DNA from: a bacterium
Lineage (GTDB): Bacteria > UBP7 > UBA6624 > JBBIMK01
DNA: 17,578 nt
Reading direction: 5' to 3'
NCBI GenBank assembly: GCA_037444445.1
Contig: JBBIMK010000032.1
Span: 1-17,578 of the forward strand
The notes beneath the pieces were generated by a model that saw nothing but the letters and a program-made list of their open reading frames with translations, did no database searches and was not told the origin of the DNA. Below, piece after piece: positions 362 through 16,521 of this stretch. Both the position numbers and the translations under genes were made by a program. The number at the start of each line of letters is the position of its first letter. Position 1 is the stretch's first letter.

Positions 362-700
362 ATGGTTAGGATGAACAAAGAGGCGGTGAAATTCTCGGTG
401 GAGACGGACGGCGAGAAAGGCTCTTTCTGGAGAATTCCTCTGGATGTAGAGGCCTGGAAACGAAGTCAGGGGAAGGTGGTGGTGATCACCGAGCGGTGTA
501 AGGGGTGTAAGTTTTGCATCCAGTTCTGCCCCCTGAATGTGTTGAAGGAAAGCACCGCCATCAACAGCAAAGGGTATCACTATCCGGAAGTGGTTCTACC
601 GGAGGAATGCACGGGGTGCGGGCTTTGCGAGCATATTTGCCCCGAATTTGCCATCATCTCTAAAAAAGAGGGCGAGGTGCCTGTATGCGTGAAGTTCTAA
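362..700 (+). CDS. korD: 2-oxoacid:ferredoxin oxidoreductase delta subunit (2x[4Fe-4S] ferredoxin-like, OorD/KorD type)
   Basis: 112-aa ORF with two CX2CX2CX3CP motifs (CKGCKFCIQFCP, CTGCGLCEHICP). It is first in a D-A-B-G gene order like OorDABC. An alternative start is ATG 371. Its stop overlaps the next gene by 16 nt. Confidence 0.85.
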   Translation: MVRMNKEAVKFSVETDGEKGSFWRIPLDVEAWKRSQGKVVVITERCKGCKFCIQFCPLNVLKESTAINSKGYHYPEVVLPEECTGCGLCEHICPEFAIISKKEGEVPVCVKF

Positions 701-1848
701 CCGGGGAGCACTTCATGATGGGGGATTTTGCGAGCGCGGAGGGCGCCATTGCGGCAGGGTGTCGTTTTTTTGCCGGCTATCCGATTACCCCTTCCACGGA
801 GGTGGCGGAGCGGATGGCAGTCCGCCTGCCAGAGGTGGGGGGAATTTATGTTCAGATGGAGGATGAGTTAGCCTCATTGGCGGCGGTCATCGGCGCCTCC
901 TGCGGTGGCATGAAAGCGATGACCGCCACCAGTGGGCCCGGCTTCAGCCTGATGATGGAGCATATCGGCCTGGCCGTTATGCTGGAGGTTCCCTGCGTGG
1001 TGGTCAATGTCATGCGTGGAGGTCCCTCCACCGGCTTGCCCACCCTCGTAGGCCAGCAGGATGTGATGCAGGCTCGCTGGGGCTCCCACGGCGACTACGA
1101 ACTGATTGCCTATGCCCCCTCCAGCGTGCAGGAATCCTTTGACCTCACCGTGAAAGCCTTCAATATGGCTGAGCGCTATCGCGTCCCCGTCCTCTTGATG
1201 ATGGATGAAACCATCGGCCACATGACAGAGAAACTCAGAATCCCTGATAAAAGTGAGATTCCTCTAATGGAGCGGAAACGCCCCCGCCTTCCCCCCGGCA
1301 ATGGCTTTCTTCCGTATGAACCCGACCCCGATGACCTGGTTCCTCCCTTCCCACCTGTGGGTGAAGGCTATTTCTTCCACATCACCGGCTTGACCCATGA
1401 TGAGCGCGGTTATCCGGTGATTACCCACACCGCACAGGAAGCCCTGGTGGAACGCCTTGTTCAGAAAATCCGAAAAAATGCCCCTCAGATTATTGAATAT
1501 GAAGAATATCAGGTGGAAGATGCCGAAGTGCTGGTGGTTTCCTACGGCGTGAGCGCTCGCTGTGCTCTCTCGGGTGTGAAAAAAGCCCGGGAAGAAGGCA
1601 TCAAAGCAGGCTACTTACGCCTCATCACACTCTGGCCCTTCCCCGAGCAACGCATCTATCAACTCGCCCGTCAGGTGAAAGGCTTTGTGGTGGCGGAAAT
1701 CAACGCCGGGCAGATGATTCGGGAAGTGGAACGCTCCGCCAGAAAAGATATGCCTTTCGTTCTCGTGAAAAAACTGGGGGGCGCCATTATTACTCCCGAG
1801 CAAGTTCAGGAGGGAATATGGCTGGCTCTGAAATCGTTCAGGAAGTAG
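685..1848 (+). CDS. korA: 2-oxoacid:ferredoxin oxidoreductase alpha subunit
   Basis: 387 aa. The N-terminus MREV...GDFASAEGAIAAGCRFFAGYPITPSTEV is the typical OFOR alpha signature. A GAGGTG SD lies 6 nt upstream. Size matches OorA/KorA. Confidence 0.92.
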   Translation: MREVLTGEHFMMGDFASAEGAIAAGCRFFAGYPITPSTEVAERMAVRLPEVGGIYVQMEDELASLAAVIGASCGGMKAMTATSGPGFSLMMEHIGLAVMLEVPCVVVNVMRGGPSTGLPTLVGQQDVMQARWGSHGDYELIAYAPSSVQESFDLTVKAFNMAERYRVPVLLMMDETIGHMTEKLRIPDKSEIPLMERKRPRLPPGNGFLPYEPDPDDLVPPFPPVGEGYFFHITGLTHDERGYPVITHTAQEALVERLVQKIRKNAPQIIEYEEYQVEDAEVLVVSYGVSARCALSGVKKAREEGIKAGYLRLITLWPFPEQRIYQLARQVKGFVVAEINAGQMIREVERSARKDMPFVLVKKLGGAIITPEQVQEGIWLALKSFRK

Positions 1849-2687
1849 AAACCACCGCTTCCGTTCATTCCTTAGAAGAGTATCTTCGTTCCGACCGAAT
1901 GCCCCACATCTGGTGTCCGGGGTGCGGGCTGGGAACCGCCATGGGTTGCTTCATCCGCGCCCTGATGGAATCCCACATTCCCCGGGAAAAGGTGGTAGTG
2001 GTCTCCGGCATCGGGTGCACCGGGCGGATTGCCGGCTATGTGAAACTGGATTCTTATCATGTCACCCACGGACGCCCGATACCCTTTGCGATCGGATTAA
2101 AACTGGCTCGCCCGGATTTAACCGTGGTCGTGTTCTCCGGCGATGGAGATTTAATCGCCATCGGTGGAAATCATTTCATCCACGCCGCCCGACGCAATGT
2201 GAACATCGTTGTCTTCTGCGTGAACAACTTCAACTACGGAATGACAGGTGGTCAGTTTGGCCCCACCACCCCCCTGGGCTCTTTGACCACTACCACCCCT
2301 TACGGATGCATAGAACATCCATTCAATCTGCCCCATCTGGCCACCGCCTCCGGCGCCGTCTATGTGGCCCGCTGGACCGTTCTTCACATGTATCAACTCA
2401 AGAGAAGTATGAAAGAAGCCCTGGTGAAGAACGGGTTCAGTTTCATTGAAATCCTCTCCCCCTGCCCGGTGAGCTTCGGCCGCCCCAATCAGTGGGGTGA
2501 GGGTGTGGATGAACTCCTTCATTACCAGTCCCACTGCATCATTAAGCACGGCGCTGACCCTGCTGAAGCAGGCATTGGCCTGGATACCCCTATCATCGTA
2601 GGGAAATTTGTGGATATAGAAAAACCCACCCTTCTGGATACCCTCCAGCAACTGAACGAGAAGGTAATGGGAGGTGTGAAGAAATGA
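1818..2687 (+). CDS. korB: 2-oxoacid:ferredoxin oxidoreductase beta subunit (TPP- and [4Fe-4S]-binding)
   Basis: 289 aa. Carries the WCPGCGLG...GIGCTG cysteine motif and the SGDGD...N TPP/Mg motif typical of OFOR beta subunits. An AGGAGGG SD lies upstream. Overlaps korA by 31 nt. Confidence 0.92.
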   Translation: MAGSEIVQEVETTASVHSLEEYLRSDRMPHIWCPGCGLGTAMGCFIRALMESHIPREKVVVVSGIGCTGRIAGYVKLDSYHVTHGRPIPFAIGLKLARPDLTVVVFSGDGDLIAIGGNHFIHAARRNVNIVVFCVNNFNYGMTGGQFGPTTPLGSLTTTTPYGCIEHPFNLPHLATASGAVYVARWTVLHMYQLKRSMKEALVKNGFSFIEILSPCPVSFGRPNQWGEGVDELLHYQSHCIIKHGADPAEAGIGLDTPIIVGKFVDIEKPTLLDTLQQLNEKVMGGVKK

Positions 2688-3259
2688 GTATTGAAGTTCG
2701 CATTTCGGGATTCGGTGGTCAGGGCATTATCCTATCGGGATTCATCCTGGGCAAGGCCGCCTCCCTTTATGATGGAAAAAACGCTGTTTTCACCCAGAGT
2801 TATGGACCGGAAGCACGAGGAGGGGCCTCCGCCGCCGACCTGGTGATTGCCACCTCCCCGGATGAGGCCGTGGATTACCCCAAGGTTCAAAACCCCCACA
2901 TCCTCGTCGTCATGTCCCAGGATGCCTACTTTACTTACCGAAACACCCTGCGCGAGAATGGGCTTCTCATCTACGACTCCGACCTGGTAACTGTGGAGAC
3001 GCAAGGCAAGAATGAACACCCCGGCTTGCCCTTCCCCGCCACTCGCCTCGCAGAGCAGGTGCTGGGGAAACGCCTCGTCGCCAACATCGTTATGCTGGGT
3101 GCTCTCTCCGCCGTCACCTCGGTTGTTTCCCTGCCCGCCCTCCAGAAAAGTGTGGAAACCAGTGTGAAGAAAGCCTTCGTGGACCTGAACTTAAAAGCCC
3201 TCCAGGAAGGTTATCTTTCCGCAGAAAGGATGGCTACCCCCTATGCGATTAGAGCCTGA
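2684..3259 (+). CDS. korC: 2-oxoacid:ferredoxin oxidoreductase gamma subunit
   Basis: 191 aa. The N-terminal ISGFGGQGIILSG motif and the size are typical of OFOR gamma subunits. ATGA start/stop overlap with korB. A GGGAGGTG SD is present. Confidence 0.9.
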   Translation: MSIEVRISGFGGQGIILSGFILGKAASLYDGKNAVFTQSYGPEARGGASAADLVIATSPDEAVDYPKVQNPHILVVMSQDAYFTYRNTLRENGLLIYDSDLVTVETQGKNEHPGLPFPATRLAEQVLGKRLVANIVMLGALSAVTSVVSLPALQKSVETSVKKAFVDLNLKALQEGYLSAERMATPYAIRA

Positions 3260-3785
3260 CCTGAAACTGAAAATTGTGGACATTCTTGGCTCCAGAGAGT
3301 TTTATCACTGCTACCAGTGCGGACGGTGCACCTCCTTCTGCCCGGTCTTCAACCACTTCCCTCATGCCTTTAATCCCCGCAAGATTATACAAAAAATGTT
3401 CATCGGCTTTACGCCGGTTCTTCAGGACCCTTCCCTCTGGCTCTGCACCACCTGCTATGAGTGCTTTGAGCACTGCCCTTTCGGAATTAACCTCGCCGAT
3501 GTTATCGTCGCGATGAGGAATCTCGCCGGAAAAAGATATGGAACCCGGAAGGAATTAACAGCGGAGTGGAACCAGATGTTATCTTCCGGCTATATCTACC
3601 CTGAAACAGAGCGCCTTCGGAAAATCAGGAGCGAACTCTCCTTGCACCCTCTGGCTCCTGACGGAGCAGAGGATTTGAAGCACCTGGTGTCTGCCCTTCA
3701 GGAATCTTTTCCAAAGGCTTCCGCTTCCCCGATGGCTTCTGCCCCGTCAGGTGCTGAAAACACGGAGTGCCACCCACATGGATGA
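3243..3785 (+). CDS. hdrC: Heterodisulfide reductase subunit C-like (2x[4Fe-4S])
   Basis: 180 aa with CYQCGRCTSFCP and CTTCYECFEHCP (both CX2CX2CX3CP). The start ATG lies 17 nt inside the korC 3' end. It is followed by hdrB and hdrA. Confidence 0.85.
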   Translation: MRLEPDLKLKIVDILGSREFYHCYQCGRCTSFCPVFNHFPHAFNPRKIIQKMFIGFTPVLQDPSLWLCTTCYECFEHCPFGINLADVIVAMRNLAGKRYGTRKELTAEWNQMLSSGYIYPETERLRKIRSELSLHPLAPDGAEDLKHLVSALQESFPKASASPMASAPSGAENTECHPHG

Positions 3786-4671
3786 GAAGTCCGCTGTTTC
3801 CACTTCCTATACCCTTTTCACCGGCTGCCTCATCAACCTGCGGTATCCACATTTTGAGGTAACAGCGAGGGAATCCGCCAATCGGTTTGGAATCCAACTG
3901 CAGAATTCTGCCCATTTCACCTGCTGTCCCGACCCTGTGGGAATGAAATCTATGGATTCCACGCTCTGGCTGACCCTGGCAGCGAGAAACCTCTCGGTGG
4001 GGGAGGAGAAAGGTTTCCCCATCGCCACCCTCTGCAACGGCTGCTTTGAGACCCTCAACACCGCCAACCGCATCCTCAAGTCGGATTCCACTAAAAAGGC
4101 TCAGGTCAATACCCTGTTAATCAAAAGTGGACGCGAGTTCAAGGGTGCCCTGGAAGTCAAGCACCTGGTTCAAATCCTCTACGAAAAAGTGGCACCAGAT
4201 GGTATTCGCAAGGCAGTGCAGAAGCCCCTGACAGGGATGGTGTTAGCCACCCATCCAGGTTGTCATGCTCTCCGCCCCAGCCCCTTCGTCCGATTTGACC
4301 ATCCCATTGAGCCGAAAGTTCTGGATGAAATGGTGGGTGCCCTCGGAGCAAAAGTGCAGGATTACAACCGGAAAATGATGTGCTGTGGCCTCCCCATTTA
4401 CAACTACGATAAACAGGTTTCCACCGGTCTGGCAATGGCAAAAGTCCGGTATCTTCAAGGTGTGGACGGGCTCGTCGTTACCTGCCCCTCCTGCTTCTTG
4501 CAGTTTGAATCCGCTCAACTCCTTGCGAAAGATAAAACCATTCCCCCTCTGCCCATCTTCTACTATTTTGAACTCCTCGCACTGGCTTTAGGTGTGGACC
4601 CCCACCGAATTGGATTTGCCCATCACCGCATTCCGGTGGACGAGGCTATCCAGAAAATTCAGCAGACATAG
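3778..4671 (+). CDS. hdrB: Heterodisulfide reductase subunit B-like (two CCG domains)
   Basis: Two complete CCG modules, counted by hand: C-X31-CC-X35-C-X2-C (TGC...FTCCPDP...CNGC) and C-X39-CC-X32-C-X2-C (PGC...MCCG...CPSC). I prefer ATG 3778, which gives an ATGGATGA overlap with the hdrC stop. An in-frame GTG at 3751 is the alternative start. Confidence 0.88.
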   Translation: MDEKSAVSTSYTLFTGCLINLRYPHFEVTARESANRFGIQLQNSAHFTCCPDPVGMKSMDSTLWLTLAARNLSVGEEKGFPIATLCNGCFETLNTANRILKSDSTKKAQVNTLLIKSGREFKGALEVKHLVQILYEKVAPDGIRKAVQKPLTGMVLATHPGCHALRPSPFVRFDHPIEPKVLDEMVGALGAKVQDYNRKMMCCGLPIYNYDKQVSTGLAMAKVRYLQGVDGLVVTCPSCFLQFESAQLLAKDKTIPPLPIFYYFELLALALGVDPHRIGFAHHRIPVDEAIQKIQQT

Positions 4672-4686
4672 AGGAGTGGAAGGTGT

Positions 4687-7089
4687 ATGATGCAAGCAGA
4701 CGGACAAATCCGCATCGGTGTGTATGTCTGCCACTGCGGGTTGAATATCGCTGGCTCGGTGGACTGTGATGCGGTGGCGAAATACGCCGCCTCTCTCCCC
4801 GGCGTGGTCGTCGCAAAAGACTATCGCTATATGTGTTCCGACCCCGGCCAGGCCCTCCTGAAGCAGGATATTCTTGAGTATAAGTTGAATCGGGTGATTG
4901 TGGCCTCTTGCTCCCCACGCCTTCACGAACCCACCTTCCGAGCCGCCTGCGAGTCTGCAGGGCTCAATCCCTACCTGTTTGAAATGGCAAACATCCGTGA
5001 ACACTGCTCCTGGGTGCACCTGTATGATAAGAAAAATGCTACGGAGAAGGCGAAGGACCTGGTGCGGATGTCCGTCGCCAGAGCCCATTTCTTGAAGCCC
5101 CAGACAGAGCAGGAAGTGCCAGTCCAGCGGGAGGCGCTGGTCATCGGCGGTGGCGTGGCCGGCATTCAAGCCGCTTTAGACCTCGCAGATACAGGCTACC
5201 ATGTCTATCTCGTGGATAAGAATCCCTCCATCGGCGGGCGTATGGCTCAGATTGATAAAACCTTCCCCACTATGGACTGCTCCATCTGCATCCTCGCCCC
5301 AAAGATGTCTGAAGTCGGCAGACATAAGAATGTGACCCTCCTGACTCATAGCGAGGTCAAGAATGTTTCCGGCTACATCGGAAATTTCCAGGTGGAAGTC
5401 CTGAAAAAACCACGCTATGTTACCGATGAATGCACCGCTTGCAACGACTGCTCTAAAGTCTGCCCCGTCGCTCTGCCCAACGAGTTTGATGTAGGGCTTG
5501 CTGTTCGCAAAGCCATTTACATCCCCTTCCCTCAGGCAGTTCCCTCCAAATATATCATTGATATGAATCACTGCCTCTCACGAAGCGCCGTTTCCTGCGA
5601 GGAATGCGTGAAAGCCTGCGGCCCCAAGTGCATTGACTTTGATATGCAGCCCGAAACCCTTTCCCTCCATGTGGGCACCATCATCGTCGCCACCGGCATG
5701 GATGTGTTTGACCCTTCAGCACTCAGAGAATACGGCTACGGTCAGTATGAGAATGTGATTACCAGCCTGGAGTTTGAGCGGCTGATTAACGCAGCAGGCC
5801 CCTCGGCGGGCAGGCTCATTCGCCCCTCCGACCGCAGAATTCCCAAAAATGTGGCCTTCATCCAGTGCGTCGGCTCCCGAACCTTCACCAACGGCATGCC
5901 TTACTGCTCCAATGTCTGCTGTATGAACACCGTCAAAGATTCCCTCCTGATTAAAGAGCACTGGCCCGATATTGACATCTATGTGTTCTATATGGACATC
6001 AGGGCTTTCGGTAAAGGATTTGAAGCCCTCTTCCGCAGGTCCAAAGAGGAAGGCGTCACTTATATCCGGGGCAAGCCCTCACGCATTGAACCGTTAGAAA
6101 ATGGCAATCTGGTGATTCACGCCGAAGACACTCTCCTCGGTGAGCCCATACAACTGGAAACGGATATGGTGATTCTTTCTGTGGGACTGGTTCCTCGCAA
6201 GGACAGCGATGTGGTGCAAAGGCTCCTCTCTCTCTCCCGGACGGAAGATGGCTTTTTCCTGGAATCCCACCCGAAATTGAAGCCCGTGGACACGGCGGTG
6301 GGAGGAGTCTTCCTTGCCGGTACCTGCGAATCGCCCAAGGACATCAAGGATAGCGTCACCCAGGCCTCCGCAGCCGCCGCCAGAGCCAGCATCCTCATGG
6401 CAAAAGGAAAGGTGAAGGTGGAAGCCCTCACCCCCATACTGGTTGCCGAGAATTGCACCTTCTGCGGGCTGTGCGTCAAGGCCTGCCCCTTCCACGCCTG
6501 GCAGATGGAACTGAAAGCCAGGAAGCCACCCACTCTCATTGAGGCTTCCTGCCAGGGATGCGGCAACTGCGGCGCCGAATGCCCCTCCGACGCCATCATT
6601 ATGCGCCACTTCCCCGATGAAGCCATCTTCGCTGAAATTGATGCCCTCACGGAAGAAAACCCCCACAAGAAAATCCTCGCCTTCAACTGCAACTGGTGCT
6701 CCTATGCGGGTGCCGACCTGGCTGGCGTCTCCAGAATCCAGTATCCCCCGGAAGTTCGTATCATCCGAACGATGTGCTCCGCTCGTGTGGCAGAAAAATT
6801 CGTCCTCCACGCCTTCAAACGCGGCATCGGAATGGTCCTCGTCTCCGGCTGCCACCCCGGCGATTGCCACTACATCAACGCTAACCTCCACACAAAAAAA
6901 AGGGTAGAACGCCTCTGGAAGCGCCTGGAACACCTCGGTATTGACAGGAATCGCCTCCACCTGGGCTGGTACTCCGCCGCCGAAGGCGAACAGTTCGCCA
7001 ATAAAATTCGCGAAATGTCCAAACAACTCCAGAAAGTCACCCCTCAAGAAATCGCCACCACTCGCGAAATCCTCGCCGCCAGAGCCTGA
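4687..7089 (+). CDS. hdrA: Heterodisulfide reductase subunit A fused to an MvhD-like (methyl-viologen-reducing hydrogenase delta) domain
   Basis: 800 aa. FAD motif VIGGGVAGIQAALDLA. HdrA signature FIQCVGSR...YCSNVCCM. Ferredoxin inserts CTACNDCSKVCP, CTFCGLCVKACP and CQGCGNCGAECP. C-terminal aa ~661-785 (FNCNWCSYAGADLAG...RTMCSARV...SGCHPGDCHY) is MvhD-like. A GGAG-rich SD precedes the ATGATG start. Confidence 0.92.
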   Translation: MMQADGQIRIGVYVCHCGLNIAGSVDCDAVAKYAASLPGVVVAKDYRYMCSDPGQALLKQDILEYKLNRVIVASCSPRLHEPTFRAACESAGLNPYLFEMANIREHCSWVHLYDKKNATEKAKDLVRMSVARAHFLKPQTEQEVPVQREALVIGGGVAGIQAALDLADTGYHVYLVDKNPSIGGRMAQIDKTFPTMDCSICILAPKMSEVGRHKNVTLLTHSEVKNVSGYIGNFQVEVLKKPRYVTDECTACNDCSKVCPVALPNEFDVGLAVRKAIYIPFPQAVPSKYIIDMNHCLSRSAVSCEECVKACGPKCIDFDMQPETLSLHVGTIIVATGMDVFDPSALREYGYGQYENVITSLEFERLINAAGPSAGRLIRPSDRRIPKNVAFIQCVGSRTFTNGMPYCSNVCCMNTVKDSLLIKEHWPDIDIYVFYMDIRAFGKGFEALFRRSKEEGVTYIRGKPSRIEPLENGNLVIHAEDTLLGEPIQLETDMVILSVGLVPRKDSDVVQRLLSLSRTEDGFFLESHPKLKPVDTAVGGVFLAGTCESPKDIKDSVTQASAAAARASILMAKGKVKVEALTPILVAENCTFCGLCVKACPFHAWQMELKARKPPTLIEASCQGCGNCGAECPSDAIIMRHFPDEAIFAEIDALTEENPHKKILAFNCNWCSYAGADLAGVSRIQYPPEVRIIRTMCSARVAEKFVLHAFKRGIGMVLVSGCHPGDCHYINANLHTKKRVERLWKRLEHLGIDRNRLHLGWYSAAEGEQFANKIREMSKQLQKVTPQEIATTREILAARA

Positions 7090-7109
7090 CCCCCCCCTCT
7101 GATTTTTTT
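7080..7109 (+). terminator. Weak candidate terminator after hdrA
   Basis: 5-bp stem CAGAG (7080-7084) / CTCTG (7097-7101) with a 12-nt C-rich loop that contains the stop codon, then A + T7 (7103-7109). The stem is short, so this is only suggestive. Confidence 0.3.
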
Positions 7110-7363
7110 CCTCCCGAACTCCGCTCTCTGACTCCTGAATCCGGAAATCCTCAATCCAATTAAGACTTCAAATCCTGCGCCTTTCTTCTACCCACTACCC
7201 GCAACGGGAAGAGCGGGGCAATGCCCCAGAGTAAAGTGATATTTCAAGACCTGTCTCCACAGGCGATGTGATGAGGAAGAAAGAAACGCCTTGATAGAAA
7301 AAAGATGCGCCTCACCCTTTTGCAGGTTCTGCTGGTGCACGATAACAGCCCCAATGGTTGGAT

Positions 7364-7690
7364 TCACTGGAAGACCTGGCGCTTGTAATAAAGCCTCCTG
7401 CCGTCAGGGGAAGGGAAAGACCCCGGAGTTTCGGGAAAATCCCGACTATCCGCCCATAGCAAATGCACCGCGTTATCAGACACAGCGCCCCCGGGGAAGT
7501 TCTTAACAGAGAATCCAGAGCTGGCACGGATGGGTGGCAACCCACTTCCGCCCCCGTCACTGCTCCCAATCATATAAACTTCATCAAAGTTCAGGGGGAT
7601 TTTATCAAAAGACCGGTGGATGCGATTTCTCCAGTTCTCCGGGGTCATCAGTAAAACGGGTGGCCCATCGCCCTTCGTCAGAAAAAGCAA
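7364..7690 (-). CDS. Hypothetical 108-aa ORF (possibly a gene remnant)
   Basis: TTG start overlapping the stop of the upstream 1281-aa gene. No SD and no recognisable motif. It is the only moderately protein-like frame in the 7090-7677 gap. Confidence 0.25.
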   Translation of the reverse strand: MLFLTKGDGPPVLLMTPENWRNRIHRSFDKIPLNFDEVYMIGSSDGGGSGLPPIRASSGFSVKNFPGGAVSDNAVHLLWADSRDFPETPGSFPSPDGRRLYYKRQVFQ

Positions 7691-10600
7691 CCGGATGGAT
7701 TCCAGTTGGTGGCGTATTTCAAATCGTCAAGGTTGTCGCCCCGAATGTAGGCAATATGGAGGCAGTTCTGAGAGTCCACAGCAATGGAGGCATATTGGCC
7801 GACATCCCCTTCAGAGTCAATGGTCACAGGTGCTGGAGCGCCGGAGGAGAGAAGGACGAGATTTTTCTTTTGTGTATCGTAAGCGATGGTGCGAAAATTG
7901 CCCCTCAGGTCCTGAACGGCGGAAGAAGGCGTCATCATTGCCATTCTGGATGCGAGGAGTTCCACATTCCAGCCGGTTGCGTTTCTATAGGCGTGATACA
8001 GCTCAGCACCCCCACCTACCTTGTTGTAGAAAATATGCACAACCCCATCCGATGAAATGAGAATGGATGTCTGCCCCACATTGGCAGTATTCGGATTTCC
8101 AGGCAGAACCTCTTCGGTGACCCACGAACCGGGAACGCCCCAGGCGTGCTTCAGTCTTCTATTCGGTCCCCGGTAGGAGATATGGAAGGTTCCCGCACCA
8201 TCCTGGGCGATGGATGTGAAGGCAAATGAGCCGTAGCTGGCGGGGGCATCCTCAATCACCTCAGTCCGCCAGAACATCCCATCAAAATAGGCGATGCGAA
8301 CCTGGGCTCTCCGGTTGAGCTGGGTGATGACATAAACGCCCGCATAGGAAATCACGGGAAGTGAGGAACCGGGTGCCAATACGATGTCGTTGAAAGCACC
8401 CAGGTCCGCCTGAGCATCCACGATGACTGGATTCCCTTGCCATATCTTCAAAAAGCCCCCGCTCTGATAGTAGGAAACGGTGAAATTGTTCCCATCCCGA
8501 ACGGCTATGGAGTTGTATCTGCCCACATCAAAAGGGGCATCCAGCGTGGTTAGCCTCCAGGAGTTTCCCATCGTTCCCACCGCCAGCCTCAAATCTTTCA
8601 TCACCTGCTCGTAATAGGTGATGAGGACGGGTGGGGGAACACCAGGACCGGGCACGGGTCCCACCCCGATGGAAGTTTGCCAGCCGATATTCCCTGCCCT
8701 GTCCACTTCCTGAATCGTCCATTCACTTTCCCGCGCTGTAACTTCAATCAGGAGTGTGGCTTCTCCATCCACCCATACCTGTGCCACAATATTTCCCCCG
8801 ATGACCTGAAAGGGAAGGGCTTGACCGGAGAGCAACTCGGTAAGGGTGACGGTGGCAGGGTTGAGACGCAAAGGCTGGGATTCCAGGGTGAGCGCTGCCC
8901 CGATGGGGGTGGTGGTGGAGTTCCTGACGGTGAAAAAAATCCCACTGGCGGAGGAAGAGCGGGAGCCAAACCGCTCCACCCACACAGAGGGGTTATCCGC
9001 ACGGGCATAGGGAATGGGTTCCCAGCCTGCCCTGTTGATACGCTTGATGAGTGGAATATACTTCCTGAACAGAGGTCGGTCACGCTCGTAAAGCCCCGGA
9101 TTGTCCCAGTATCGGTCCTCCGCCGCATTATGGCTGAACATACTGGGATAAATGCCGTAAAACAGGCAAATCTGGAAATACCTTTCCACCAGTGCGTAAG
9201 TGAGATTGTCAAAGTTGGTGTTCATCAATAAGCCGTAAGGCTTCTGGTAGGCGAGCGTTCGGCGGTAGTTCATCACCGCATCGGAATCCGGGCGAAGGAA
9301 GGCGGTTCCATCGGGTTGCCAATCCACCTCTATCCCCATAAAATCAAACAGTTCCACACCCCAGGGCATAAACCCACTCCAGCCAGTCAGCATAGCATTT
9401 GCCATAGTCCACTTGCGCAGATTGTTGTGCACATCATCGGACAGCCAGCGGGAAAACTCCGTAGTGGCGAAAACTTCTGGCAAGCCGAGGCGCCAGTCCT
9501 GTGTCCGAAAGGTCAGGGGTATGTCCGTCGCCGAATAGTGAGAAACCCGGAAATCCATTCTGATGTTATATCCCAGGTAAGAGTCCACATATTCCCCGTC
9601 CAGCCCCGGATAAGTTCTGTAAGCGTTTCTGGCAGAATCGTTCCAGTGCAGGTTCGCCTTATTGAGTGGATACTGGGGGTCGGTGATGTCCGGGTCGGGA
9701 TTCACGATGAAGGCAGCACACCCAGCCACCCCCCGGCACCAGGGGGGACTGTTCTGGGGGGAATAGGGGATATAGCGATACCTGTTGTTCTCGTCAAACA
9801 TTCCAGAGGAGAGGGTGGCTTCCGCCATCCTCCTTTCCCACGGACTGCCAGTCTGATGCTTGTTCTGCACATACGCCACCACCTGGTCGTAATTGAAGGG
9901 GTCCACATTCGGGTCGTTAATAAGCCACCACATCGACCAGGGTTCCGCAATATAGCGAAAGGAGAGGATTCCCACGCTGTCATCAAAAGCAACTTGATTC
10001 AAATTGCCCAGTTCGTGGAAGGCAATGCCAAAATCCTGAATGTTCGGAATGGGGGAAAGGTCGGAGAAGGCAACCCAGATACCTTCCTGCTCCGGGGGCA
10101 GGCTGCGCTGGAAGAACTCCGGAAAACGGTCATAATAGCCCTTTGCCGCCGAACGAAACCCCCACTGAGAGTCCGTGCGGTAAAGGATGAAATCCACCCA
10201 CGCTTTGCGGGGAAACCTGGAGGTGAGTGGTGAAAGCCCCAGGTCATAGGCGAAAAAGAACAGATTTGCCGAAGGGTTGTATATCAGGCGGAAGAAACGG
10301 GGGTGGTCTGATGGATGCGCCAGAGCAAGCCCCCCAGATGAGCCACTCAGGCTTGCCCAGGGATAGTTGCTGAAATAGCCAGTCGCGCCGATGTCCACAT
10401 TCCAGAGATTCCGATTGATGAACTCGTTAGTGCCAGCGACGATTCTGCTGGAGCGGATGTCATCCCCCCAGGTCCATCCTTCAGCGAGGATGGGAAGGGC
10501 AAAGTAAAGGGTGATCGCTCGGTCCGCTCCGGTCAGGTCGGTGAGCTCCGCGTGAATGGAAATTCGGTCAAAAAAGGCTGTGTAGGTCGCCTCAAAATTC

Positions 10601-11523
10601 AGGTTCAACGGTTCCACGACGGTCTGGTGGAAAATCTCATTTCCGCTGATGGTAAGTGTTCCGCCGGGATGGTAGTAGTCGGATTGGTTCGCCACATCCC
10701 GGATGAAAAACCCACCCGCATAAGCCTGCGACGGGGCATTCACCGAGGTGCCTCCCAGAGCGATGCCGGTGATTGCACCACCCCCGCTGGAAAATGTGAT
10801 GGACAGACCATCCCCGGTGGTTAAAGTGAGGGGAGAACCCCCATAGGGAGGTGAGGGATACACAATCTTCCCAACCGGGTTGCTGTCAAATGTAATCACT
10901 TCGTCCAGGATTTCTTGCACGCTGATGTCGTCAAACCACACTCCGCCCGTGTGAGTCAACCGGAAAAGGCAATAGACTCGGATATTCCTGATGGGCTTTT
11001 CCGGGAGAATGAACCCTTCCAGAAACTGCCAGTCGTGCGTGCCAGTGTTGAAGCGCAAAGTCTGTCCGTAAAGGGGTGTGCCATCGGTATAATACACATC
11101 CAGGTAGATGCTGTAGTGGGCATCTACGACACCAGATACATTTTCCGCCTTGCTCCAGCCGCTGAAATAGATGGGGCGTGGCACCGACTGGTTCAGAACG
11201 ATATTCTGAACAGCCCCGCGGACCTCATCGGGAACTAAACTGGAAAGTTTCAGCGCCCGGCTCCCCAACCTTCCCCACGTTTCATCCACCGTATATCCCA
11301 GCCCGTAAGGGTTCCAATATGTGGCTTGCCCCGGTGAACCGTCTTCAAAACCGGGATTCAACAATAAGTTCCCCGACATCCGCAGGTTGCGGGGATGGAC
11401 GAACACCTTCCAGGAGGGCACCAAAAACGCATCCCCATCCCTCGAAATAACCACCAGAAGAAGGCTTGCCCAAAATATGTGTATCCACAATTTTTTCCCG
11501 CACCGCAAGCCGAAAAATGCCAT
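7678..11523 (-). CDS. Large secreted multidomain protein: signal peptide + CBM4/9-like carbohydrate-binding module + uncharacterised central domain + C-terminal beta-propeller-like repeats
   Basis: 1281-aa uninterrupted ORF. AAGGAGG SD 7 nt before the ATG. The N-terminus MAFFGLRCGKKLWIHIFWASLLLVVI looks like a signal peptide. aa ~50-205 (NLLLNPGFEDG...WFDDISV) resembles galactose-binding-like CBM4/9 modules. The last ~350 aa carry about 7 repeats of the pattern VGxYxSIAVDxxGxxHIxY...LKYA. Confidence 0.9.
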   Translation of the reverse strand: MAFFGLRCGKKLWIHIFWASLLLVVISRDGDAFLVPSWKVFVHPRNLRMSGNLLLNPGFEDGSPGQATYWNPYGLGYTVDETWGRLGSRALKLSSLVPDEVRGAVQNIVLNQSVPRPIYFSGWSKAENVSGVVDAHYSIYLDVYYTDGTPLYGQTLRFNTGTHDWQFLEGFILPEKPIRNIRVYCLFRLTHTGGVWFDDISVQEILDEVITFDSNPVGKIVYPSPPYGGSPLTLTTGDGLSITFSSGGGAITGIALGGTSVNAPSQAYAGGFFIRDVANQSDYYHPGGTLTISGNEIFHQTVVEPLNLNFEATYTAFFDRISIHAELTDLTGADRAITLYFALPILAEGWTWGDDIRSSRIVAGTNEFINRNLWNVDIGATGYFSNYPWASLSGSSGGLALAHPSDHPRFFRLIYNPSANLFFFAYDLGLSPLTSRFPRKAWVDFILYRTDSQWGFRSAAKGYYDRFPEFFQRSLPPEQEGIWVAFSDLSPIPNIQDFGIAFHELGNLNQVAFDDSVGILSFRYIAEPWSMWWLINDPNVDPFNYDQVVAYVQNKHQTGSPWERRMAEATLSSGMFDENNRYRYIPYSPQNSPPWCRGVAGCAAFIVNPDPDITDPQYPLNKANLHWNDSARNAYRTYPGLDGEYVDSYLGYNIRMDFRVSHYSATDIPLTFRTQDWRLGLPEVFATTEFSRWLSDDVHNNLRKWTMANAMLTGWSGFMPWGVELFDFMGIEVDWQPDGTAFLRPDSDAVMNYRRTLAYQKPYGLLMNTNFDNLTYALVERYFQICLFYGIYPSMFSHNAAEDRYWDNPGLYERDRPLFRKYIPLIKRINRAGWEPIPYARADNPSVWVERFGSRSSSASGIFFTVRNSTTTPIGAALTLESQPLRLNPATVTLTELLSGQALPFQVIGGNIVAQVWVDGEATLLIEVTARESEWTIQEVDRAGNIGWQTSIGVGPVPGPGVPPPVLITYYEQVMKDLRLAVGTMGNSWRLTTLDAPFDVGRYNSIAVRDGNNFTVSYYQSGGFLKIWQGNPVIVDAQADLGAFNDIVLAPGSSLPVISYAGVYVITQLNRRAQVRIAYFDGMFWRTEVIEDAPASYGSFAFTSIAQDGAGTFHISYRGPNRRLKHAWGVPGSWVTEEVLPGNPNTANVGQTSILISSDGVVHIFYNKVGGGAELYHAYRNATGWNVELLASRMAMMTPSSAVQDLRGNFRTIAYDTQKKNLVLLSSGAPAPVTIDSEGDVGQYASIAVDSQNCLHIAYIRGDNLDDLKYATNWNPSGCFF

Positions 11524-14454: not shown

Positions 14455-14817
14455 TTATCGGTGGCTGAAAATCATTTCCAGCGCCACCAGAAGGAGAAAC
14501 ACGCCAAAGAGTCGCCTGAGGAGGACATCCGGAATGTCGGAGGCTAAAACCGCACCCCCATAAACTCCCGACAAAAATCCCACCACAATCCACGCCGCCA
14601 CAGGCACCTTCACATATCCTCCCAGGTAGTATTTCCAGACCGCTGGAAGGCCTATGGGCAGAAGGAGTATCGCCAGCGAGGTTCCCTGTGCCTCGTGCTG
14701 GGTGAAGTGGAAAAGATACCGCAGAAGCGGGATGATAATAATTCCTCCTCCCACCCCCAGAAGCCCGCTGGTTATCCCCGCCGCCACGCCCACGACCACA
14801 TACAGAAAAATCGGCAT
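14455..14817 (-). CDS. TauE/SafE (DUF81) family anion-exporter-like membrane protein, half-size (120 aa, ~4 TM)
   Basis: Hydrophobic 120-aa ORF with the family-typical GLLGVGGGIIIIPLL motif near the N-terminus. A GAGGAGG SD lies 9 nt upstream. Last gene of the trxA-mnmA unit. Confidence 0.8.
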   Translation of the reverse strand: MPIFLYVVVGVAAGITSGLLGVGGGIIIIPLLRYLFHFTQHEAQGTSLAILLLPIGLPAVWKYYLGGYVKVPVAAWIVVGFLSGVYGGAVLASDIPDVLLRRLFGVFLLLVALEMIFSHR

Positions 14818-14879: not shown

Positions 14880-15935
14880 TCAGGAAAGCACCGAGTGGAT
14901 AACTCCACCGCCCAGCACCCGGCTCCCATCGTAGAACACGGCGGACTGCCCGGGTGCAGGAGCCCACACCGGCTGTTTCAATGTCAGCAGGGCAGTATTC
15001 ATTCTTTCGTCGTAAGACACTTCTGCAGGCACTTCCTCAGCCCCTGCCCTGTGCTTGACCAGGCAGGTGAAGGAAGTAGCGGGTGCTGGCGTTAAGAACC
15101 TGACCCTCTCCACCCGTATCCTGTTGCCCCATAATTTTTCCCTTCTCGCTACCACCACCTGATTCAATTCCGCTCTTTTCTCCTTCACAAAAAGAGGCTC
15201 GGAGGTAGGGATTCCCAGCCCCTTTCTCTGCCCCACGGCGTAAAAGGGAACCCCCCGATGATGCCCCAGAACCCGCCCCTCTTCATCCACAATTTCTCCT
15301 TCTCGCACCGGGAAAAATTTTTCTCCTTTCCCATTCAGAAAGCAGAGGTCCTGACTTTCCCGCCTCGCGGCGTTGGATAGCCCCGCCTGACGGGCGATTT
15401 CTCTGACCTCTTCCTTCGTCCGATTCCCCAGCGGAAAGTAAATTTTTGGAAGCCACTCGGATTTCAATGTATATAAAAAATATGCCTGGTCCTTCTGAAC
15501 ATCTACCCCTTTATGAAGTTCATATTCCTTCGTGGTGTGATTTTGAAGAATACGAGCATAATGCCCGGTGGCAACCCCTTCTGCCCCCACGGCTTTTGCC
15601 TGCTGGAAAAGCCACTCAAACTTAATTTCCCGATTGCATTCCACGCATGCGTTGGGCGTGCTTCCCCGTTCATATCCCCTCACAAAAAAATTCACCACTT
15701 TTTCTTTAAACCTCTCCTCGCTGTTCACCACATAGAAAGGAATATTCAGGAATTCCGCCGTTTGACGGGCAAATTCCACTGCCTCCAGTGAACAGCAACT
15801 CCGCGGGTTGTTCCCTTTCCACAGGTGCAAAAAAATTCCTACCACCTCGTATCCTTCTTGTTTTAACAGGTAAGCGGCAGTGGAAGAATCCACGCCCCCG
15901 CTTAATCCTACCACCACTCGGGGTCCAGTATGCAC
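14880..15935 (-). CDS. mnmA: tRNA 2-thiouridine(34) synthase MnmA
   Basis: 351 aa. PP-loop VVVGLSGGVDSS. Catalytic-Cys contexts PNACVECNREIKF and ESQDLCFL. Size typical for the family. GTG start. Confidence 0.93.
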   Translation of the reverse strand: MHTGPRVVVGLSGGVDSSTAAYLLKQEGYEVVGIFLHLWKGNNPRSCCSLEAVEFARQTAEFLNIPFYVVNSEERFKEKVVNFFVRGYERGSTPNACVECNREIKFEWLFQQAKAVGAEGVATGHYARILQNHTTKEYELHKGVDVQKDQAYFLYTLKSEWLPKIYFPLGNRTKEEVREIARQAGLSNAARRESQDLCFLNGKGEKFFPVREGEIVDEEGRVLGHHRGVPFYAVGQRKGLGIPTSEPLFVKEKRAELNQVVVARREKLWGNRIRVERVRFLTPAPATSFTCLVKHRAGAEEVPAEVSYDERMNTALLTLKQPVWAPAPGQSAVFYDGSRVLGGGVIHSVLS

Positions 15936-15960: not shown

Positions 15961-16314
15961 TCAGTCGCCCGCTACTCCCATTGCGGTAAGGAAACCCTCT
16001 ACCTTTTTGGCAAAAGTTTTTTTCGGCACATATCCGATGAGCGTGTCTTTTAACTCCCCGTCTTTGAAAAATAAAACCGTGGGGATGCTCATCACATGAT
16101 ACCGGTCCGCCACCTCCGGGGAATCATCCACATTCAACTTGCACACCTTGATGCGGCCGGAGAGGTCATTTGCCACTTCCTCTATGATGGGAGAAAGCAT
16201 CCGGCAGGGTCCGCACCATTCCGCCCAGAAATCCACAATCACCGGTAATTTCTCCTGTAATACTTCCGCTTCAAAATTTTTTGCACTGACCTCTTTCGCG
16301 CTCATAGATTTCAC
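15961..16314 (-). CDS. trxA: Thioredoxin
   Basis: 117 aa with the WAEWCGPCRM active site and a typical thioredoxin fold sequence. A GGTGAGGTGA SD precedes the ATG. Confidence 0.95.
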   Translation of the reverse strand: MKSMSAKEVSAKNFEAEVLQEKLPVIVDFWAEWCGPCRMLSPIIEEVANDLSGRIKVCKLNVDDSPEVADRYHVMSIPTVLFFKDGELKDTLIGYVPKKTFAKKVEGFLTAMGVAGD

Positions 16315-16521
16315 CTCACCTGTATGGCGTTGAAATCAGGGTGGAGAGGACTCCACCGTGCCGTGTCTTACAAAGCCCCGAACCGCAGCCCAATCAGGTG
16401 GGTGCCCGTAGGTGAAGGTCCGGTACCCCGAAGGACGCCTTTCACATCATCATCCGGGCTCCCTGCGGTATGCTTTTGGGGTCGGGCTTCTCCGAATCAC
16501 GCACACAGCAGAGCCTCGTCC
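16315..16521 (-). ncRNA. Highly structured ~200-nt RNA: trxA 5' leader (possible riboswitch-like element) or independent sRNA of unknown class
   Basis: Lies between a strong promoter and the trxA SD. Nested long-range helices exist on the - strand: 16498-16513 with 16351-16365 (contains 4 G-U pairs that would be A-C on the + strand), 16482-16489 with 16373-16381, 16463-16469 with 16382-16388, and 16455-16459 with 16404-16408. There is also an apical hairpin at 16412-16445 with a CC-UUCG-GG tip. Overlapping ORFs are P/S/R-rich junk. Confidence 0.5.

Follow-up and report, generated by a model that had tools for sequence, protein, structure and literature searches.

A 2-oxoacid:ferredoxin oxidoreductase encoded in one operon with an HdrA2B2C2-type module in a bacterial contig

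How 2-oxoacid:ferredoxin oxidoreductases (OFORs) gain or shed electrons near -500 mV is a recurring question. These enzymes catalyse the thermodynamically hardest steps of the reductive tricarboxylic acid (rTCA) cycle and of related CO2-fixation routes, and in anaerobic fermentations low-potential ferredoxin comes mainly from them. The bacterial contig JBBIMK010000032.1 (17,578 nt; this whole stretch is referred to as the window) carries a compact operon in which the genes of an OFOR run directly into those of HdrC, HdrB and a bifurcation-type HdrA. With seven genes and no membrane parts, the operon is a concrete and tractable candidate for direct coupling of the two enzymes. It raises the question of whether the OFOR and the Hdr proteins belong together and, if so, which position in electron transfer the OFOR would take. 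Related loci indicate that the two gene sets are inherited together, and they suggest, tentatively, that the OFOR stands in for free ferredoxin.

The operon and its products

The seven genes are all co-directional, with coordinates taken from the open reading frame (ORF) list and start and stop junctions read in the sequence. All seven products were assigned by Pfam and NCBIfam. TPP denotes thiamine pyrophosphate.

362-700, + strand: OFOR delta subunit, KorD/OorD-like, with two [4Fe-4S] clusters (ORF list, Pfam/NCBIfam, motifs); an alternative start is ATG 371
685-1848, + strand: OFOR alpha subunit; POR_N plus PFOR_II domains, YPITP motif present (Pfam, NCBIfam NF006412)
1818-2687, + strand: OFOR beta subunit, with a TPP motif (GDGD..NN) and four Cys for the proximal [4Fe-4S] cluster (Pfam, NCBIfam, alignment)
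2684-3259, + strand: OFOR gamma subunit, with a POR domain (ORF list, Pfam, NCBIfam)
3243-3785, + strand: HdrC, with two [4Fe-4S] clusters and a non-conserved C-terminal tail (Pfam, NCBIfam, motifs)
3778-4671, + strand: HdrB, with two CCG modules (Pfam, NCBIfam, motifs); the start is ATG 3778, and the ORF opens at GTG 3751
4687-7089, + strand: HdrA2, an HdrA fused to an MvhD [2Fe-2S] domain at residues ~661-789 (NCBIfam NF040770, PDB alignment)
301-344, + strand: AT-rich stretch with two overlapping sigma-70-like promoter matches (9/12 matches each; suggestive only)
7080-7110, + strand: short hairpin (CAGAG..CTCTG) and T7 at the hdrA stop, a possible but weak terminator

The genes are tightly packed. 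Within the OFOR, the delta and alpha genes overlap by 16 nt (700/685) and the alpha and beta genes by 31 nt (1848/1818), and the beta/gamma junction is a 4-nt ATGA at 2684-2687. The hdrC and hdrB genes overlap by 8 nt (hdrB ATG at 3778; hdrC TGA at 3783-3785), and the sole intergenic gap, 15 nt between hdrB and hdrA, contains GGAGGAG. The junction between the two enzymes is itself a 17-nt overlap (3259/3243), and a gamma/hdrC overlap of 4-29 nt was seen in 9 of the 10 lineages with the same gene order. These coordinates and junctions are identical to those of an earlier sequence-only reading of this DNA, which had taken the two enzyme systems for one expression unit rather than chance neighbours. 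The gene arrangement supports that interpretation, as does the conservation of the linkage across phyla, gene orders, and Bacteria and Archaea.

The operon boundaries are plausible, although their signals are not statistically significant. The promoter-like hexamers sit 18-60 nt upstream of the delta gene, and the number of such matches in the upstream region is not above shuffled expectation. The hairpin that precedes the T-run at the hdrA stop likewise folds no better than shuffled sequences. Farther upstream, a region of 240 nt separates the operon from a divergent minus-strand gene that starts near 71. An 8-bp inverted repeat without mismatches, GGGAGGAG-N5-CTCCTCCC, lies in this region at 141-161 on the + strand and is followed by a T-run to ~172. 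This element is terminator-like, yet it has no co-directional upstream gene and may be an operator or leader element. Rfam gave no match to it.

The window OFOR has every feature of a four-subunit alpha-beta-gamma-delta 2-oxoacid:ferredoxin oxidoreductase. The delta subunit is a Fer4 dicluster protein whose nearest NCBIfam models are OorD and OGOR_delta (OGOR, 2-oxoglutarate:ferredoxin oxidoreductase), and a motif script located CX2CX2CX3CP motifs at residues 46 and 83. The alpha subunit comprises POR_N (237 bits) and PFOR_II (81 bits) domains, contains the YPITP motif as GYPITPST, and passes NF006412 (2-oxoacid:acceptor oxidoreductase) with 567 bits against a cut-off of 411. Its best solved relatives are 1YD7, the alpha subunit of the P. 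furiosus 2-keto acid:ferredoxin oxidoreductase, and 8YS5_A, OorA of H. pylori. The beta subunit has a TPP_enzyme_C domain with the TPP motif SGDGD...VNN. Its best solved relative is 8YS5_C (H. pylori OorB), and the OorB cluster ligands listed in PMC12307629 have Cys33, Cys36, Cys66 and Cys215 as their aligned counterparts in the window protein. The gamma subunit consists of a POR domain. The substrate is probably 2-oxoglutarate/succinyl-CoA, because the nearest named and solved relatives are Oor/Kor enzymes and because SucCD flanks a related OFOR cluster (locus L175); the H. pylori paper names no 2-oxoglutarate-binding residues (PMC12307629).

The downstream genes are of the HdrA2B2C2 type, in which an HdrA-MvhD fusion above its family cut-off stands alongside a two-CCG HdrB and a two-cluster HdrC. 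HdrC has TIGR03290 as its nearest model and CX2CX2CX3CP motifs at residues 23 and 68, and its start codon is backed by an invariant MRLEP N-terminus in its homologues. HdrB comprises two CCG domains, and its 10 Cys form a pair of CX(n)CCX(n)CXXC modules. These provide the ligands for two non-cubane [4Fe-4S] clusters, which make up the disulfide site. HdrA2 (800 aa) passes NF040770 ('HdrA2') with 1246 bits against a cut-off of 1100. It contains a GGGVAG dinucleotide fold, the DCSIC and CVGSR...YCSNVCC motifs and three CX2CX2CX3CP motifs, with a flavin adenine dinucleotide (FAD) site and inserted and C-terminal ferredoxin domains. Residues 8-654 match M. wolfeii HdrA (5ODC_A) at 873 bits with all cluster cysteines conserved, and the C-terminal residues 661-788 match MvhD (5ODC_D) at 140 bits, in agreement with a Pfam FlpD (FlpD/MvhD) domain at residues 663-784. 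Each cofactor motif that the sequence-only reading had described as intact was recovered by the motif script. An insertion in the inserted ferredoxin domain (C-X8-C vs C-X2-C in M. wolfeii) was considered as a clade marker and rejected, as it also occurs in HdrA proteins that are not OFOR-linked.

The disulfide is unlikely to be the coenzyme M-coenzyme B heterodisulfide (CoM-S-S-CoB), because both HdrB (252 bits against 345 for TIGR03288) and HdrC (99 bits against 160 for TIGR03290) fall below the CoB-CoM equivalog cut-offs and because the host is bacterial. Elsewhere the window carries genes for a Fur-family regulator, thioredoxin, MnmA and 6S RNA, which identify the host as a bacterium.

Conservation of the linkage and the family of architectures

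The linkage was surveyed from three starting points (HdrC, HdrA and OFOR alpha), and species representatives in GTDB were scanned with HdrC, followed by tblastn of all seven proteins. This gene-neighbourhood survey, which the sequence-only reading had proposed, was strongly positive across phyla, gene-order rearrangements and both domains. The same OFOR clade adjoins the same HdrA-MvhD clade in ~41 fetched loci (L numbers below), with at least five gene orders. These loci span WOR-3/Hydrothermales, Planctomycetota, unclassified 'bacterium JZ-2024 1' metagenome-assembled genomes (MAGs), Rokubacteria, Anaerolineales, an actinobacterial MAG and Bathyarchaeia. In the scan that started from HdrC, the remaining ~65 loci (Methanoperedens, sHdr-type Sulfobacillus, Syntrophomonadaceae, Asgard and others) contain Hdr without this OFOR.

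Each starting point leads to the same association. HdrC-like cluster representatives at E<=1e-30 number only 7 among 1.84 billion. All six database homologues of the window HdrC lie in the same seven-gene cluster, with at least five unrelated flank contexts, and the five best HdrC matches among the GTDB representatives (WOR-3 MAGs and 'Ca. Hydrothermus pacificus') have the same gene order. Planctomycetota MAGs have the reversed order, HdrCBA and then the delta, alpha, beta and gamma genes (DABG), and in L075, from one actinobacterial MAG, the OFOR and Hdr genes are interleaved. The best 120 HdrA homologues are mostly ~70%-identical HdrA2 proteins of 801 aa, the named ones mainly from Bathyarchaeia. 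There, HdrA2-MvhD (69% identical) is followed within 0-76 nt by delta-alpha-beta-gamma, with alpha 65% identical. Among metagenome loci, the OFOR adjoins an HdrA of at least 64% identity in 17 of 18 informative cases, with five gene orders, and is never adjacent to an HdrA of 55% identity or less. Sampled homologues of OFOR alpha (62-66% identity), those of L173, L174 and L175, are Hdr-linked in 3 of 3 cases. Pairwise distances of alpha and HdrA across 29 loci are strongly correlated (Mantel r = 0.88; 0 of 2000 permutations reach this value). The conserved linkage and the correlated distances therefore indicate that the OFOR and HdrA have been inherited, and have moved between domains, as a unit.

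The flanks were also compared for further partners. Beside window-type clusters, no extra gene recurs beyond antisense shadow ORFs and lineage synteny; a crotonase-family gene that recurs in three phyla was judged to be a large-family coincidence. No ferredoxin gene is conserved in the OFOR-Hdr clusters. The sequence-only reading had reported that Flx, MetFV, hydrogenase and lipoate-binding partners are absent from the operon, and this extends to every locus of the same architecture, where these partners and formate dehydrogenase (FDH) are equally absent. Neither the window nor the annotated flanks of L001-L009 contain the Mvh/Fdh genes (MvhAG, FdhAB).

The operon is thus not a single-contig curiosity; it belongs to a family with at least five architectures, which differ in having no third module, GltD for HdrB, a GltD-like protein plus HdrB, EtfAB, or Flx, and which includes the apparently widespread HdrA2 type of Bathyarchaeia. 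T1 (window, WOR-3, Planctomycetota and 'bacterium JZ-2024 1') comprises OFOR, HdrA-MvhD, HdrC and HdrB. T2 (Bathyarchaeia) comprises OFOR, HdrA-MvhD and HdrC::GltD. T3 (L120, L123, L126, L170 and L175) comprises OFOR, a long GltD/NfnB-like flavoprotein, MvhD-HdrC-HdrB and HdrA-MvhD. Within T3, L126 has a GltD-like protein and an MvhD-HdrCB fusion, and L175 has the order SucC/SucD, DABG, GltD-like protein, MvhD, HdrCB and HdrA. T4 (L173 and L174) comprises OFOR, a long HdrA-like protein, HdrCB and EtfAB, and T5 (L075 and the published Endoriftia cluster) comprises OFOR, HdrA, FlxABCD and HdrCB.

Several members of the family have unusual gene products. In Bathyarchaeia, L090:8560-9993, which lies immediately before the HdrA2-MvhD and OFOR genes, encodes a 477-aa fusion of an HdrC-like dicluster domain to an NAD(P)H flavoprotein of the GltD/NfnB type, and the HdrC::GltD fusion is also present in 13 similar metagenome loci (for example L131, L094 and L108). 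The Bathyarchaeia clusters contain no HdrB, which suggests that a pyridine-nucleotide module in effect replaces the disulfide-reducing subunit. The Rokubacteria and Anaerolineales MAG loci (L173:11078-17496 and L174:5350-11831) encode DABG, a ~1140-aa double-flavin HdrA-like/MvhD protein, an HdrC-HdrB fusion and EtfA/EtfB. In a Planctomycetota MAG (L018:17011-20316), a second HdrC'-HdrB'-HdrA' set follows the OFOR, which is located between two Hdr modules; this HdrA' is 613 aa long and has no MvhD domain.

OFOR-linked HdrA genes of Planctomycetota (L018:11966, L021:9637 and L031:11984) have an in-frame TGA at the second Cys of DCSIC (DCSI[TGA]ILGPKM), and homology continues downstream of it, suggesting that these proteins probably contain selenocysteine. 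The HdrA genes of L126 and L175 appear to be split near the DCSIC site as well. The HdrC profile search also found P0212, a 445-aa protein with response-regulator receiver, glycine-cleavage H (lipoyl-carrier) and HdrC domains, a set that would tie a lipoyl carrier to Hdr-type iron-sulfur chemistry.

The candidate position of the OFOR in electron transfer

We propose an HdrA2B2C2-type bifurcating/confurcating device that is reversible and has three ports, in which the OFOR would sit at the low-potential (ferredoxin) port and stand in for free ferredoxin. This proposal is held tentatively, at a little short of an even chance. Electrons from the TPP site would pass through the beta [4Fe-4S] cluster to the two delta clusters, then enter the clusters of the HdrA ferredoxin domains at the low-potential port and reach the HdrA FAD. 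From the FAD, the HdrC clusters and the non-cubane clusters of HdrB would lead to a disulfide/dithiol other than that of CoM/CoB. The fused MvhD [2Fe-2S] domain would form an open mid-potential port for a partner encoded outside the operon, for which an Mvh-type hydrogenase, reduced ferredoxin or a hydride carrier would be a candidate. In the forward direction, a donor at ~-320 to -410 mV would be split between an exergonic branch to the disulfide and an endergonic branch to succinyl-CoA carboxylation, in a manner analogous to the Hdr-Fmd/Fwd supercomplexes. Without a third partner, the same wiring would act as a downhill 2-oxoacid:disulfide oxidoreductase, the counterpart of the ferredoxin:heterodisulfide activity of HdrA2B2C2. 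As regards the hydrogenase, Mvh hydrogenase genes are reported in 34 WOR-3 MAGs (PMC12542636).

The low-potential position is suggested by T3, T4 and T5, which hold an NAD(P)H donor, HdrB as the high-potential arm and the OFOR as the remaining arm. The NAD(P)H module lies at ~-320 mV and the OFOR at ~-500 mV, and the HdrB disulfide would lie at ~-150 mV, judged by known heterodisulfides. In these three architectures the middle potential would equal the mean of the outer two, a signature of flavin-based bifurcation. In the alignment with 5ODC_A, the bifurcating HdrA of known structure, the window HdrA itself retains all of the cluster ligands. HdrA2B2C2 of Methanosarcina acetivorans passes electrons from reduced ferredoxin to the heterodisulfide and also bifurcates from F420H2 (PMC5296606). 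The sequence-only reading had suggested that the OFOR might be the redox partner of the Hdr proteins. The functional linkage is borne out, although the place of the classical donor is not: the relatives carry Flx (L075), GltD-like (L126/L175) or EtfAB (L173/L174) partners of the NAD(P)H type, and the OFOR therefore more likely replaces low-potential ferredoxin than the classical donor.

A more specific reading is doubtful, namely that the proteins form a 2-oxoglutarate synthase supercomplex that bifurcates electrons and needs no ferredoxin, as the OFOR counterpart of methanogen Hdr-Fmd. A mid-potential donor would be split at the HdrA flavin: H2 through an Mvh-type hydrogenase that docks on the fused MvhD or, in the Flx, Etf and GltD-like versions, NAD(P)H. 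One electron would go to the thiol/disulfide couple and the other through delta to succinyl-CoA carboxylation. If this were true, many bacterial phyla, and the Bathyarchaeia with their global abundance, would possess an OFOR-type Hdr-Fmd counterpart. Coupling of the OFOR to HdrA, if true, would require metabolic reconstructions of these lineages to be revised with respect to TCA direction, hydrogenotrophy and redox balance.

Several points weigh against a bifurcating device with the OFOR at its low-potential port. The correlation of alpha and HdrA distances also arises from shared vertical descent and is no proof of contact. The window OFOR scores below the cut-offs of its nearest equivalogs (OorA, 399<579; OorB, 239<364; OorD, 51<93; OGOR_delta, 57<125). 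No gene for a mid-potential partner was found in the ~13 loci with the window architecture, which fits a self-contained linear enzyme with two termini equally well or better. The Bathyarchaeia form has only OFOR and NAD(P) termini, so that bifurcation would need a ~-410 mV donor in trans. Many of the organisms that carry these genes are regarded as fermentative heterotrophs, a lifestyle that points to the oxidative direction. Finally, an exhaustive HdrC profile search and the long HdrA2 proteins yielded no OFOR::Hdr fusion. Long proteins with a C-terminal HdrC, considered as gamma::HdrC, proved by Pfam to be tandem HdrC-HdrC, response regulator-GcvH-HdrC or PAS fusions, and a 913-aa HdrA2 (P0036), considered as a delta fusion, has an unrelated N-terminal extension.

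A linear, non-bifurcating 2-oxoacid:disulfide oxidoreductase is unlikely. Electrons would run from delta through HdrA, HdrC and HdrB to the disulfide with no third partner, the HdrA flavin would only gate one-/two-electron steps, and the Bathyarchaeia chain would end in NAD(P)+. Such a module would be self-contained, in keeping with the finding that no locus of the window architecture or the Bathyarchaeia type contains a donor gene. Phenylglyoxylate:NAD+ oxidoreductase, an OFOR that is extended by a GltD-like subunit and reduces NAD+, offers a precedent, and names of this family appear among the NCBIfam matches. Some loci have catabolic neighbours (SucCD and 5-oxoprolinase in L175/L090; methylmalonyl-CoA mutase in L002/L005), although as clues to the direction of the reaction these genes give mixed hints. 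A ferredoxin:heterodisulfide oxidoreductase activity has also been measured for HdrA2B2C2 (PMC5296606). Conversely, the linear scheme would waste ~300 mV and would leave unexplained why a complete bifurcation-type HdrA with a fused MvhD port is retained, and the related architectures add an NAD(P)H module beside HdrB that such a scheme would not need.

It is rather improbable that the OFOR and Hdr are physically separate enzymes that share soluble ferredoxin, with the operon serving only to match their expression. Four-subunit OFORs normally pass electrons from delta to free ferredoxin, and the absence of fusion proteins agrees with separate enzymes, as does the use of free ferredoxin by HdrA2B2C2 (PMC5296606). 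However, the linkage survives gene-order shuffling and inter-domain transfer, which is more typical of the subunits of one complex, and the clusters share no conserved ferredoxin gene.

Docking of the OFOR on the fused MvhD, in the place of hydrogenase or FDH and as the donor for bifurcation to the disulfide and free ferredoxin, is very improbable. In the Mvh-Hdr and Fdh-Hdr structures (5ODC and 7BKB families) the donor docks on MvhD, and in Bathyarchaeia the end of hdrA that encodes MvhD is immediately followed by the delta gene. Nonetheless, a donor at ~-500 mV and a disulfide at ~-150 mV would call for a second acceptor at ~-850 mV, and we know of no physiological acceptor near that potential here. 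The Flx, Etf and GltD-like architectures, moreover, already supply a proper mid-potential donor. One option of the sequence-only reading, 2-oxoacid oxidation driving disulfide reduction, is thus tenable as a linear downhill reaction and fails as bifurcation, because an OFOR donor at ~-500 mV would need this very low-potential acceptor. Lastly, chance adjacency of two unrelated operons is effectively refuted by the comparative data, given the 17-nt coding overlap of gamma and hdrC and a linkage conserved in ~41 loci of several phyla and Archaea (17/18 and 3/3 in the directed tests).

Other features of the window and comparison with known systems

Downstream of the operon, searches of Pfam, NCBIfam, PADLOC and PDB sequences gave no match for a 1281-aa ORF (7678-11523, - strand). 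L001 is otherwise syntenic but lacks this ORF, its Fur gene coming immediately after hdrA. The ORF therefore looks like an orphan giant gene inserted between hdrA and fur. A TauE/SafE-like ORF of 120 aa (14455-14817, - strand) covers the Pfam model in its C-terminal half only. The same short form is kept in L001:8834-9196, so a recent truncation is improbable. The Rfam and tRNA scans of the window detected only a 6S RNA gene (16346-16517, - strand; RF00013, 60 bits), which is far from the operon and adjoins genes for thioredoxin (15961-16314, - strand) and mnmA (14880-15935, - strand).

Among known systems, the Hdr half resembles HdrA2B2C2 of M. acetivorans (Yan, Wang & Ferry 2017) in its HdrA-MvhD fusion, two-CCG HdrB and HdrC. 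It differs in its bacterial host, in HdrB and HdrC scores below the CoB-CoM cut-offs and in the translational coupling of hdr to an OFOR; a term search of the accessible part of PMC5296606 returned no mention of an OFOR link.

The OFOR half shares its subunits, D-A-B-C order and cofactor ligands with OorDABC of H. pylori (8YS5, PMC12307629) and the Kor-type enzymes of Thermococcales (1YD7). Those enzymes stand alone and use soluble acceptors, whereas the OFOR clade of the window is systematically Hdr-linked, and the window enzyme misses the OorA/OorB/OorC/OorD equivalog cut-offs.

The sequence-only reading recognised no characterised complex of this composition, but the pairing is not without precedent. 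A korABCD-flxABCD-hdrABC rTCA cluster is known from 'Ca. Endoriftia', Escarpia symbionts and Thioflavicoccus (PMC6315080; PMC11636981). For the tubeworm symbionts, it was proposed in 2019 that bifurcated electrons feed OGOR directly (PMC6315080); the idea was proposed again in 2024, and the Endoriftia kor-flx-hdr cluster was shown to be co-transcribed (PMC11636981). As in the window operon, a four-subunit OFOR is paired with HdrABC; in the Endoriftia-type cluster it is an OGOR whose genes are interleaved with hdrABC. In the Flx-containing equivalent L075, alpha is 61% and HdrA 48% identical to the window proteins. Unlike the window operon, the Endoriftia-type cluster has an FlxABCD NADH dehydrogenase module, an HdrA without fused MvhD and an rTCA context. 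The window has no Flx domains (NAD(P)H flavoprotein, Fer4_22 protein or separate FlxD), and its 17.6 kb contain neither an NAD(P)H module nor rTCA genes.

The Mvh/Fdh-Hdr-Fmd(Fwd) supercomplexes of methanogens (5ODC, 7BKB, 8RVU and others) have a very similar HdrA core and the same MvhD module. In the Hdr-Fmd/Fwd supercomplexes, the HdrA flavin delivers its low-potential electrons straight to an enzyme that fixes CO2 rather than to free ferredoxin (PMC13518236, PMC13580544), which is also the principle proposed for the window module. There, the acceptor is formylmethanofuran dehydrogenase, reached via a polyferredoxin, the donor is a known hydrogenase or FDH, and the disulfide is CoM-S-S-CoB. 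In the window, the candidate acceptor would be the OFOR.

FlxABCD-HdrABC of Desulfovibrio and the sHdr system (HdrC1B1AHypC2B2 with LbpA) are, like the window module, bacterial and Hdr-like, and they act on a protein or cofactor disulfide other than CoM-S-S-CoB, as the window module probably does. The HdrA of the sHdr type is a short protein that lacks ferredoxin and MvhD domains, and it matches only in part, with ~36-42% identity (L038-L064). By contrast, the window encodes an 800-aa HdrA with all domains and single-copy HdrC and HdrB, and it has no GCV_H/LbpA domain.

In the searchable literature, outside which the HdrA-module review of Appel et al. 2021 falls, neither the Flx-less OFOR-HdrA2(MvhD) module nor the Bathyarchaeia OFOR-HdrA2-HdrC::GltD form was found to be described. 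In the sections consulted, the WOR-3 genome paper treats kor and hdr as separate systems (PMC12542636), and the Culexarchaeia and Bathyarchaeia genome papers do not mention an OFOR link (PMC9723716, PMC7886697). Bifurcating Hdr modules with exchangeable partners are already known, and OGOR has been proposed as one such partner; judged by its gene content, the Flx-less OFOR-HdrA2(MvhD) form appears to differ from these in its composition.

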